From Paramecium tetraurelia (taxonomy: Eukaryota), in the NCBI GenBank assembly GCA_000165425.1, contig CT868038.1, positions 124,001-188,000 on the forward strand: a DNA stretch of 64,000 bases. The letters run 5' to 3'. The number at the start of each line of letters is the position of its first letter. The stretch's first letter is position 1. Shown piece after piece: positions 30,996 to 36,233 of this stretch. A model generated the notes under the pieces. It was not told the DNA's origin and did no database searches. It worked only from the letters and a program-made list of their open reading frames with translations. Position numbers and translations under genes: made by a program.

Positions 30996-32708
30996 ATGAA
31001 AGATTTACGTAACCTTCTGAGTAAGGATAATGAGGATCAATTGTCAGATAAACGAGAATAACTCTATCAATAATAAGCAATAAGTCGAAGAACTGCTGTC
31101 ACTCGTGAATCTGGAAGGCCAGCTGGATCACGGTCTTATTAAAGATTTTTTAAGATCGATTCTCCTACTGGAAACCTTGGAAACTTTTTTCACCATCATA
31201 AATTCTCTTTATAACAGGATGCCTTCCATTATTAGGCAGATTAGTAAGAGAAATTTGTCGTTAAACAATATTGGAGATCTTTGCTTAGATGGCAAGGGTT
31301 CGATGACTATCTGTTCTTGAGAGATCCTATCAACCTAAGACACATAAGGGGAAGGGAGATCCTAACAAAGAATGATGTGGTAGAAGAATTACAAGCATAC
31401 AACATCCATGTTTAAGTGTTGTATCAGGCTGACAATGGGATGTAGGAGTACAAGGACTAGCATCGTAGATCATAGATGCAGCAATTACAGAAGTTGTATT
31501 AGCCTGGAGAGGCAAATTACCAGAAATTTAATCCGGAGAAGTACAAATAATCATTTTTTGGGGGAAAGGATACTGGAAAATTGTAATAAATGGTATTTGA
31601 GAATGCTAAGTTGCATGAGTTAATTGATAAGATACAACAAATACTCTAATTGATCAATGAGAAGATTGTGGGCGAAGAGATTAACCAAATATCCCCACTT
31701 GGAGAGAGGATGATCCGATTATTATGGAAAATCGGATGTTTGAATATGTTTTTGTTGGGCTATTTCATACACAACATTATTTTGGAGATTTATGGTAAGG
31801 AGAAGTTGGCATATCAGAATTGGAAGAAGATCTTGCGTATTTGTAATATGTAAGGCAATCATTGTCACCGCTACAAATTGATAGCCTACAAGCACATATC
31901 CAAGATTTGCATTAAGCTCTAATTATATGACAAGAGTCTCATCTATCTGAAGAAGATGCTCAAACTCTCATGGATTATTAACGATACCAATTACGAGATC
32001 TTTACTTATGATAAAATATCTTTATGTTATTATTACAAGTAGGATATGAACAAGGCAATCTATTATCATGAGAAATTCGCTTAGGGAGAGTATGAAGAGG
32101 CAGGCAAGGGCATGAGGAATGTAGGAGAGGCTGCCTATCTATTGGATGCAAAAATGAAGGAGGGGTTCATCGATTAGAATTCCTATTCTGAGGATGAGTA
32201 CGATCTTGATGTCCTCTTATAGAATGGCAATTTGAACAAGTGGGAATTGGAGAACAAACGCAAGGATCTAAAGGTTATGGCCAAGAAGATACCCACGGAA
32301 TATAAGAAGGGACATAGTTTTGGTAAAATTCATCGACCCACTAATAACATTATTGACTTCAAACACGCCATGTTAATCTTACACAAATTTCAAAACAAAT
32401 AATAGATTCCTTTGGGACCTATTCAATCAAAGGATGTTCCTGATCAAATATAATCTACGAAGAGATGGAAGAAGAAAGATCCTCTCTAATCTTGTCAATA
32501 TCTATTCAATTAAAAGAGCACTAATAGAGTTGCCCAGAACTTTCTATTGTAAGAAGAAATTAAAGAATAACCTATTAGTGATGCTATCTGCTTCAAACCA
32601 TCAGAGAATGTATATTATATAAAAAAGATGATCAGAGTATTTTAATATGATCTTAAGTATTTTTTATAGAAACAATCTCTTTTTAAAAATTCCACTGATT
32701 GTTTATGA
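30996..32708 (+). CDS. TPR-containing protein
   Basis: AYKHISKICIKLQLYDKSLIYLKKMLKLSWIINDTNYEIFTYDKISLCYYYKQDMNKAIYYHEK TPR-like helices. Confidence 0.75.
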
Positions 32709-32722
32709 ATATAATTTAATAT

Positions 32723-34659
32723 ATGAATTAACCAATATCACTAAATTGTCAAAATCCAAAAAAAGGATACCTCATATAGAGAGGAGTAAGTAAAATCAAT
32801 CAGAATCCAAAGGAGAAACAAACATTTGCTGACTATGTGAATTCATTGTCGGAATCATAACATCATCTGCTCACTCATAACAAGTCTCCTAGAAAAGACT
32901 CAGTGCCCAAACGAAATCCCCCGCTCCCTAAATTAGAATTGCCCAATCCTGATATCATGAATAAGAGATTTGTTGTAAATGTAGGTAAATGTCCGATCAC
33001 TAATTTCCAATCGCCTATTTATAGACCTAGTGTACAATCCCATTAAAATTAATTCCATAACCTCTACTCTCCCAGACACTATTCTTTTGAGACTCGGAAG
33101 TCTCTCGTTCCTCAATAAAGATTGTTGCCTATCCATCGAACTTCGGTCAACAATATCACTGGTAGGAGCGTAATGGACGATGACATGAGTCTGTTCTATT
33201 ATAAAATTGGAGGCTCTGAAGTTGTTGATCAACTCAATGAGGAATTCCATAGTTATTCAACTCAACACGAGATGATCTCATGTAAATACTCAAAATATAT
33301 TTAGAGATTGATGATTTAGAAAGATATAAATAACGATTCAGGACGTTCTTGGAATACATTATGGGAAAGCCCATATTCTATAATCTGGAACAGCTAAAAG
33401 AGAAACATAAGGATTTAAGACTCAAAAATAGAGATTTCAATTAATTCAAAAACTATTTAATTGTAAACAATACTCATCTAATATAGACATGCTTCTTAAA
33501 AGTCAATAAAGGACAATTAGATTTTGTGTTTGAATTCAGTTCCATGATTGAGCAATATCGTTATTGTATCATCAATAGCAATACTCCATTCGCAATTATC
33601 TACAACCAGAGGACGGAGAAGTTGAACACAAAAGACGTCCCAGATGCAATCCTGCAATTAGCTCAGAGCAGCTATCAAAAGATTTTCTAGGACAATTCTC
33701 TAGCACCCTACTTCATAGGCATCGAAATCAAACAATAAGCCAGAAAATTGGGCAAGATCCTGTCTCAATTAATGGCATGGGAACAAACCAATGATCAGAT
33801 CTTGGTTGAGATGAGACAGTCCCATAAGGGAATGCATCTCACAAATGTCCATTTCACACTCTTTAAATAGCATTTGATTGAGTCTATGCGTCAATTGAAT
33901 ATACAAGAGAAACAAATAGAGTTGGTGACATCTAGAATGGATGGGTATCGAAGTTACATCATTAATCAAGACTCTTTGCTCGACTACTATGGGGAACAGT
34001 CTTCCCTATTGTAGGTTTAGCAGAAGAAGTATGTGTAATTGTTGAAAAGAGATGTCAGAATGTAAAACTATCCCTTGATAGCCCTGGAGAGACATTCTTA
34101 ATTTATATTGAGATATCTCACTCATCAACACATACCAACCCTCACAAAAAATGATTTGTGGACTATCCATTCGAAGTATAACATAGCCACTGAATGGATC
34201 GATTCCTTTCGGGATAACTTTTTTCAACTTATTAAGAGTCTCAATTTAAATGCCTTGATCATCTAAGATTACGAAGATATCTGGTATAAACTAAGGAAGA
34301 ATATCACCTAATGCCACTCGATTGAAAGCAGCGTTGGTAAGAAGAAGGTGGAAGTTGTAATAGCGAAAGTTTAAATGAAATTGTAAGACAATGAAAACTA
34401 TACAGAATATTTTAAGAATGCCAACTACCAAATGAATTTACATCTGCATCGAATTATTGCTTTTATTCTTAAAGATTAACACATATATAACTCTAATGAT
34501 TTGAAGGTCATTCATCAATCAGTGAAAATTAGAGAAAGCACATTTAATTTGTTTGTTTAATTCTTAAAAAATGCTATGTAAGAAGAAGCCATTTGTTCCA
34601 GTCTAATTGCTTAGGCTGAAGAAATTTGTAATTATTATAAAAAGAGTATATGTACTTGA
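32723..34659 (+). CDS. Multidomain truncated haemoglobin: four tandem 2/2 (group I/trHbN-like) globin domains
   Basis: Introns of 23 and 24 nt give 629 aa; SLFYYKIGG start; four repeats each with proximal His: LKEKHKDL, MRQSHKGM, LWTIHSKY, LKVIHQSV. Confidence 0.85.
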
Positions 34660-34790
34660 TTGCTGTTATCTTACTCCTAATTGATTATTTTCGTTTATTT
34701 CGTAATTAAAAATAAAGTTTTCTGGAATATAATATATCTAATATCATAAACAAATTATTAATGTCAAATTATATTCATTGGTTGGCGTAT

Positions 34791-35417: not shown

Positions 35418-36233
35418 TCAAAAATCAATTGCCTGTTGTTATGTGCCAATAATCATGCTTGGATTAAACAAAGAGTTAGATCTACCAATCCAATCGAAAC
35501 TATTGGTTGGTTCAAGGTGTTTAATAATTTATCTAGTTGTCGACCCACTCAAAATCACAATCAAATGGAAAAAGCAAAAGACTCCTATGATGGCACTTAT
35601 GAAGCAAACTATAATCAATAAAAAATCTGTTAATCCATTGCTTTCCTGAGGATCGATTTTATTTAAACTAACCAGGATCGAAAGACCCTACATGAGGAGA
35701 CTGGCCAAAAACAAGGCAAAATATCTAATATAAATACTGTGCCATTACTTGTAGTTTCGTTTTCCTATGCAGTTATTCACAAAGGGACAATGATGATCAA
35801 ACATCAAAATGCAATTATCGCATTGTTTGCAATGGGATGAGCCTGGGGGTTTTTTGATTAAACAAGTCTCGCACATAGGCCAAGAGCCTTCAGTTTCCCA
35901 TTCTGTGTTCATGATTTCAAATATGTTCTTTCTGGGGATGATTCCAGGATCTGTAAATTAAGTCAGAAAGAGAAAGAATAAGGTTAGGAATCCTAAAAGC
36001 AAAGTGCAAATAAAGAGCAGTCTGTTGGCTTCCCAAATTTGTTACCCATTCGAAATACTAAAGAATAAAGGGAGGAGTATTAATCCACACCAGGTGAAAA
36101 GGTTAGGGCCATTATCAGAGCTAGGTCCAATCATGATTCTGCCACCCAGATAGAATCTATTCTTGCCTGGCCAAATCTCATATAGTTTGTGTTCTCTTTC
36201 ATCTTCGAATTTAATATGTTATTAATTTATCAT
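35418..36233 (-). CDS. DHHC palmitoyltransferase (Erf2/ZDHHC9-like)
   Basis: [62 protein letters not shown]. Confidence 0.93.

Follow-up and report, generated by a model that had tools for sequence, protein, structure and literature searches.

A candidate multi-unit truncated haemoglobin of Paramecium tetraurelia with four linked globin-like domains and a basic N-terminal tail

Introduction

The ciliate truncated haemoglobins (trHbs) of Paramecium caudatum (1dlw/1uvy) and Tetrahymena pyriformis (3aq5) are single-domain proteins of 116-121 aa that carry one haem. TrHbs typically carry Gly-Gly hinges at both the AB and the EF corner, and in Synechocystis GlbN a His at E10 reportedly acts as a ligand. 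Multi-unit truncated haemoglobins are said to have been identified in silico by Hade et al. in 2017 (IUBMB Life 69:479). According to the account in PMC7475203, multi-unit T globins came to light in silico, and chimeric as well as multi-unit T1 sequences are found in ciliated protozoan parasites. One algal example, THB5 of Chlamydomonas reinhardtii, is described as having four consecutive 2/2Hb domains (PMC7082302). The same source attributes ligand stabilisation in class I 2/2Hbs to a network of polar B10, E7 and E11 residues, and names LysE10 as the sixth ligand in THB1, THB2 and THB4. Globin domains are also described as being in wide use as sensors (PMC3820574).

A search of the main text of available papers returned no experimental work on multi-unit trHbs and no mention of the P. 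tetraurelia gene or protein identifiers of the family described here. The original prediction for this locus knew of no characterisation of such a protein in ciliates. This holds for experiments within that search, with the qualification that multi-unit T1 sequences are among those reported in silico (PMC7475203).

Gene model, introns and transcription

The window is the whole 64-kb stretch of DNA that was analysed. Its G+C content (25-36%), taken with the tiny introns and the proteins that match best, places it in the Paramecium aurelia complex. Under the ciliate code (NCBI table 6), two overlapping open frames on the forward strand (32705..33547 and 33280..34659) are fused once 33282-33304 is taken out. 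With both introns removed, a single 629-aa ORF runs from the ATG at 32723 to the TGA at 34657-34659 (Table 1), as originally predicted; retention of the second intron would yield a 637-aa product. The gene is not hidden: removal of intron 1 alone gives a product (637 aa) that agrees residue for residue with an uncharacterised P. tetraurelia protein in public databases (P0203 / GSPATT00034857001), and the orthologs are already annotated with PF01152. The sequence itself is not new.

Table 1. Features of the globin gene; positions are counted from the first nucleotide of the window
Feature	Coordinates	Strand	Description	Basis
Candidate multi-unit group-I truncated haemoglobin	32723..34659	+	ATG to TGA	Table 6 translation
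N-terminal tail	32723..33181	+	aa 1-153, basic, predicted disordered	Composition; AF2 model of ortholog
Conserved tail motif	32822..32839	+	TFADYV, consensus [ST]F.[DQ][YF][VI]	13-sequence alignment
Domain 1 (D1)	33182..33579	+	aa 154-270 of the 629-aa model, split by both introns	
Intron 1	33282..33304	+	23 nt, GTA..TAG, frame-shifting when removed	One X4 contig; ortholog proteins
Putative intron 2	33463..33486	+	24 nt, GTA..TAG, multiple of three, no TGA	
Domain 2 (D2)	33580..33969	+	aa 271-400, canonical pocket	
Domain 3 (D3)	33970..34323	+	aa 401-518, most diverged	
Domain 4 (D4)	34324..34656	+	aa 519-629	
D1 pocket			B10 His176 (Tyr or Phe in some paralogs), E7 Tyr194, E11 Phe198, F8 His221 (codon 33406), G8 Phe234	
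D2 pocket			B10 Tyr302, CD1 Phe315, E7 Gln323 (TAA codon), E11 Leu327, F8 His352 (codon 33823), G8 Phe365	
D3 pocket			B10 Tyr421, CD1 Tyr434, E7 His442, F8 His467 (codon 34168), G8 Phe480	
D4 pocket			B10 Gln535 (TAA codon), CD1 Phe548, E7 Met555, E10 His558, E11 Leu559, F8 His582 (codon 34513), G8 Phe595	

Transcript data bear out one of the two predicted introns and leave the other retained. The junction of intron 1 agrees with the ortholog proteins, and one contig from X4, a label presumed rather than certain to denote an RNA run, lacks exactly 23 nt at 33282 (contig 32741-34447), as expected of a spliced transcript. Intron 2 is present in that same contig and in the sole contig from RNA run X3 (33460-34747). 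At a raw-read depth of 0.55 or less at the site, no splice junction could be listed for intron 2, and no read shows it spliced. When retained, the segment inserts VNNTHLIQ in frame into the G helix of D1. These eight residues are absent from all 13 aligned orthologs and paralogs, P. bursaria among them, and also from the P. tetraurelia sister copy P0206. Intron 2 is read as real and possibly inefficiently spliced; with the segment retained in both spanning contigs and in the public model, either 629 or 637 aa may be the length of the protein.

The gene is transcribed from the predicted strand. Stranded oligo-dT (poly-A) RNA gave 110 and 105 reads on it in two runs, all with the first mate on the reverse strand, as expected for forward-strand RNA, and coverage extends over roughly 32748-34671. 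In RNA run X20, 3/3 reads differ from the window within D4, with C for T at position 34617 and G for A at 34623; these mismatches probably reflect a strain difference.

On the opposite strand, a DHHC palmitoyltransferase lies at 35421-36233 (Pfam PF01529, E 5.3e-28). Upstream, a 570-aa open frame without a Pfam match occupies 30996-32708 on the forward strand, and its TGA stands 15 nt ahead of the globin ATG. This frame probably ends earlier in reality, since the AT-rich interval 32560-32720 appears intergenic.

Domain layout and globin identity

Downstream of the tail, the chain divides into repeats of 117, 130, 118 and 111 aa (D1-D4). The globin identity of the first two is recognised by Pfam. 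PF01152 (Bac_globin; cut-off 21) matches P0002, a piece of the window, at 34.5 bits and 13/13 orthologs at 35.9-51.2 bits; in the orthologs the strongest stretch falls within D1 or D2. Both D1 and D2 pass, with D2 in isolation at 20.5 bits, slightly below the cut-off. Searched singly, D3 and D4 have no Pfam match. Against PDB sequences, D3 gives chance-level matches only; the best five for D4 are ciliate trHbs, yet at E 0.2-0.3. In hhalign comparisons of ortholog sub-alignments, D1 pairs with D2 at a probability of 92.7% (E 4e-7) and D2 with D4 at 70% (E 4e-5); D3 relates weakly to D4 (E 0.027) and gives no signal against D1 and D2 (E 0.3-0.8).

More sensitive evidence comes from the family's own relatives. 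In a profile search of 1.84 billion representatives, 195 proteins came in at E ≤ 0.001, many of them with several matched stretches, and 31 single-domain proteins from these matches, all 31 of them Pfam Bac_globin members, were used to build a local trHb HMM. With this model, which is partly tuned to the family in that its single-domain sequences came from the family's own profile, the window domains are matched over nearly the full model length (D2 iE 7.8e-25, D3 2.4e-5, D4 7.7e-17); D1 of an ortholog scores iE 2.7e-16. Taken singly, D3 scores 18.4 bits and D4 57.7 bits, and 0/2000 shuffled sequences reach either score (shuffle maxima 11.4 and 12.6, respectively). At least two domains are thus recognised by globin HMMs, D1 and D2 by Pfam and D3 and D4 by the local model in addition. 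With four tandem 2/2 units in one polypeptide, collinear with those of the four-unit relatives P0027 and P0033, the protein falls within the multi-unit class.

A six-frame scan of the whole 64-kb window (1003 ORF pieces) with the trHb HMM matches this gene alone (E 6e-50), a signal well clear of chance. Another globin gene in the window is ruled out by the same scan, the runner-up standing at E 0.16.

Predicted structures agree with the sequence assignment. An AlphaFold model of the window's own D3, built from 24 aligned sequences, has six helices, pLDDT 81.4 and pTM 0.78, values to be read with the caution that the alignment contains relatives with canonical third domains, which pull the model towards a globin fold. 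The 50 matches listed for this model all have globin or globin-like folds. Foldseek gave no match at E ≤ 0.001 for either domain model, and the E-values for D3 are 0.5 or worse; the top rows are trHbs all the same. A 2-on-2 alpha-helical sandwich is present in the predicted models. In the AF2 full-length model of the ortholog P0004 (577/629 residues identical, 92%), the domains have pLDDT 75-95, and residues 1-155 and 275-290 fall below 50. The low-confidence part of D2 is the segment ahead of its B helix.

The N-terminal tail

The disordered leader of the original prediction is supported by these models, with two corrections: it is 153 rather than 155 aa long, and it is Pro/Ser/Asn-rich and basic rather than S/P/R-rich. 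Its composition is 10.5% P, 10.5% N, 9.8% S, 7.8% K and 6.5% R (K+R 14.3%), with a net charge of +13. No Pfam family matches the tail, and nothing in the protein atlas resembles it convincingly, the best feature score there (0.80) being at chance level. Its mean pairwise identity is 0.47, against 0.64, 0.68, 0.62 and 0.59 for D1 to D4.

A short conserved motif stands out within this tail. Residues Q33, S34, F35, A36, Y38 and V39 are invariant in 13 aligned relatives (QSFA.YV), and the window protein has Thr at position 34. The deep paralogs P0021 and P0030 carry the variants TFRDFI and SFKDFV. The motif lies within the sole helix predicted in the tail (residues 35-49, pLDDT ~40).

Proximal histidines and differentiated distal pockets

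Each of the four domains retains a His at the proximal position. The four codons lie where they were predicted (Table 1), the last three spaced 345 nt apart, and in the alignment to the trHb HMM the F8 His is matched by His221, His352, His467 and His582. This residue is invariant in D2, D3 and D4 of 28/28 sequences, distant four-domain relatives included, and in D1 of the 26/26 sequences that possess this domain. HMM alignment, conservation and the structural models together uphold the predicted array: four group-I truncated globins in tandem, all of them with His at F8.

The distal pockets differ from domain to domain, as had been proposed, and their residues are conserved position by position across Paramecium paralogs. 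The sequence shows both the motif quoted for D2, SYQKIFQDNSLAPYF..KQQ, and the FH quoted for D1. Helix positions are taken from the HMM alignment and not from a solved structure, and the alignment of D3 is low-scoring. Read in this way, the residues expected of a Tyr B10 and polar E7/E11 network would be in place in D2 (Tyr B10, Gln E7) and partly in D3 (Tyr B10, His E7), and missing from D1 (His B10, Tyr E7, Phe E11) and D4 (Gln B10, Met E7, Leu E11). The pocket of D1 is crowded and aromatic (His/Tyr/Phe B10, Tyr E7, Phe E11), and its CD1 Phe has been lost through a three-residue deletion. D3 has a conserved His at E7, and the His at E10 of D4 is specific to the family.

By its residues, D2 looks like a normal ligand-binding trHb, with the classical TyrB10/PheCD1/GlnE7 pocket of O2-/NO-reactive trHbs. 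By analogy with LysE10 of THB1, THB2 and THB4, the distal His that D3 and D4 each conserve suggests hexacoordinate (bis-His) haems in these two domains. Gly-Gly hinges are mostly missing from the four domains: the AB motif occurs only in D1 (KIGG), and at the EF corner D1 has GKP and D2-D4 have none. Canonical single-domain trHbs do carry GGP, and the Gly-Gly feature is typical, not universal.

Relatives and age of the layout

Thirteen relatives of 587-635 aa come from five Paramecium species and share 94-42% identity with the query piece P0002; cluster members from P. tetraurelia add a sixth species. P. tetraurelia has at least six members of the orthogroup and three deeper four-domain paralogs. 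In a quick tree with SH-aLRT support, the domains group by their position in the chain and not by protein: the labels change 9 times, where shuffling gives a mean of 41. In the deep paralogs P0020 and P0030, each of the four domains scores best with the HMM of the corresponding domain.

Judged from these sequences, the four-domain layout is the product of old internal duplications that preceded both the Paramecium whole-genome duplications and the P. bursaria split. A recent duplication of the four domains is ruled out by the position-wise clustering across paralogs. The four-unit relatives P0027, P0033, P0056, P0049 and P0067 are collinear with this protein, and in P0027 and P0033 each of the four units is matched by the trHb HMM at iE 1e-20 to 1e-29. 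D3 is weak or undetected with the same HMM in the paralogs P0021 and P0030.

Arrays of this kind extend beyond ciliates. In the alga Astrephomene (P0017, a volvocine relative), five units cluster together with support of 100, apart from the Paramecium positions, which suggests that algal arrays arose by independent duplication. Larger globin arrays occur in Perkinsus and in a diplonemid.

Several relatives differ in the parts that surround the globin units. P0027, P0033 and P0056 lack the long tail; their residues 1-30 are short, basic, hydroxyl-rich and acid-free, like organelle-targeting presequences. Two relatives are chimeric, the 654-aa P0231 of Ichthyophthirius and the 701-aa P0082 from a metagenome: in one, a truncated globin is joined to a peroxiredoxin-type AhpC-TSA domain, and in the other, five globin units are joined to ankyrin repeats. 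The P. tetraurelia paralogs P0021, P0030, P0209 and P0221 bear the public names 'HECT', 'FHA' or 'RGS domain-containing'. Pfam matches in P0021 and P0030 are to Bac_globin alone, and the above-cut-off matches of P0010 and P0014, the cluster representatives for P0209 and P0221, are to globin families only; the automatic names look unsupported.

Proposed function and alternative explanations

With a probability of roughly 0.75, the locus is an expressed, conserved nuclear gene of the Paramecium aurelia complex for a multi-unit group-I (T1/N) trHb, made of a disordered basic tail and four linked 2/2 domains. All four domains would bind haem b. D2 would be the main site for exogenous ligands and could support O2/NO chemistry such as NO dioxygenation, and D3 and D4, as likely hexacoordinate bis-His haems, would lend themselves more to redox or electron transfer. 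The tail, through its [ST]F.D[YF][VI] motif and basic Ser sites, could dock a partner such as a reductase, or be regulated by phosphorylation. A role as NO dioxygenase or sensor would need such partners, because no reductase or output domain is recognised in the protein. Counting against this interpretation are the failure of D3 and D4 in Pfam, the loss of the CD1 Phe in D1, the few Gly-Gly hinges and, if intron 2 is retained, the 8-residue insertion in the D1 G helix. The same weaknesses of the C-terminal half would be explained if the array were partly degenerate, with D2 and perhaps D1 working and D3 and D4 kept as globin-fold relics without haem that serve as structural or interaction modules. 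This is unlikely. It draws on the absence of single-domain Pfam matches for D3 and D4, the mere 15-18 bits of D3 against the trHb HMM and its faintness in P0021 and P0030, and the atypical pockets of both domains, D4 lacking TyrB10 (replaced by Gln) as well as a polar E7/E11. Against it stand, for D3 and D4, an invariant F8 His in all 28 sequences, deep paralogs and distant relatives among them, aromatic or hydrophobic residues at CD1, G5 and G8, identities (0.62/0.59) near those of D1/D2 (0.64/0.68), and a full 2/2 fold in the predicted models.

The mature product could also retain intron 2 (637 aa), with D1 impaired or altered and the 629-aa form minor or absent in this species. This outcome is possible, if somewhat doubtful: the segment is present in both spanning contigs, including the X4 contig from which intron 1 has been removed, and is kept in the public annotation; being a multiple of three without TGA, it preserves the frame, and a transcript with such an in-frame, stop-free intron could escape nonsense-mediated decay. 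Yet the segment has the canonical GTA..TAG ends and typical length of an intron, its residues are missing from 13/13 aligned relatives and from the P. tetraurelia sister copy, and contigs reveal the presence and not the absence of variants, here at a read depth of 0.55 or less. Another view of the tail would make the protein a haem-based gas or redox sensor, neither enzyme nor store, in which ligand binding alters the conformation or accessibility of the tail and signals to a partner. The short conserved motif, the basic Ser sites, the differentiated pockets and the wide use of globin domains as sensors described in PMC3820574 are in keeping with this. Such a sensor is nonetheless very improbable, as no output domain is recognised (the tail has no Pfam match and a best atlas feature score of 0.80) and nothing in these data links the tail to the globins functionally. 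A bolder extension of the multi-unit trHb reading, and a speculative one with rather long odds, would combine four chemically distinct haems in an NO dioxygenase or redox relay wired largely within itself, in which an O2/NO-reactive D2 is wired to electron-passing bis-His haems in D3 and D4, a reductase is recruited by the motif, and intron retention could switch D1 on or off. If true, the assignment of these roles to positions in the chain would be older than the Paramecium genome duplications and would have stayed fixed ever since.

Comparison with known multi-unit and single-domain truncated globins

What is new here are two domains that Pfam misses, together with position-specific distal pockets conserved across Paramecium paralogs. 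With D3 and D4 invisible to Pfam, database counts understate globin arrays of this kind; a survey of domain databases would probably credit this protein with two units and not four, because Pfam detects D1 and D2 alone. The family offers a clean study case for multi-unit truncated globins, which are otherwise known from sequence surveys. Paramecium is amenable to RNAi by feeding and to GFP tagging, and function can be tested in the organism itself.

The protein fits the class of multi-unit T1 globins that PMC7475203 reports from ciliates, likewise tandem 2/2 units in one chain. Its closest counterpart in number of units is Chlamydomonas THB5, also from a microbial eukaryote and with the same count of four tandem class-I 2/2Hb domains, a likeness taken from its description and not from an alignment. 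In Chlamydomonas THB1 and THB4, hexacoordination is achieved through LysE10; the corresponding residue here is a His, which is the predicted ligand. Compared with the single-domain ciliate trHbs 1dlw/1uvy and 3aq5, the Paramecium protein has four linked units and a 153-aa tail, three of its four pockets depart from the Tyr/Gln pattern, and the Gly-Gly hinges are mostly gone. It adds to a class already known and amends the view that ciliate haemoglobins are solely small, single-domain proteins, and it overturns nothing.
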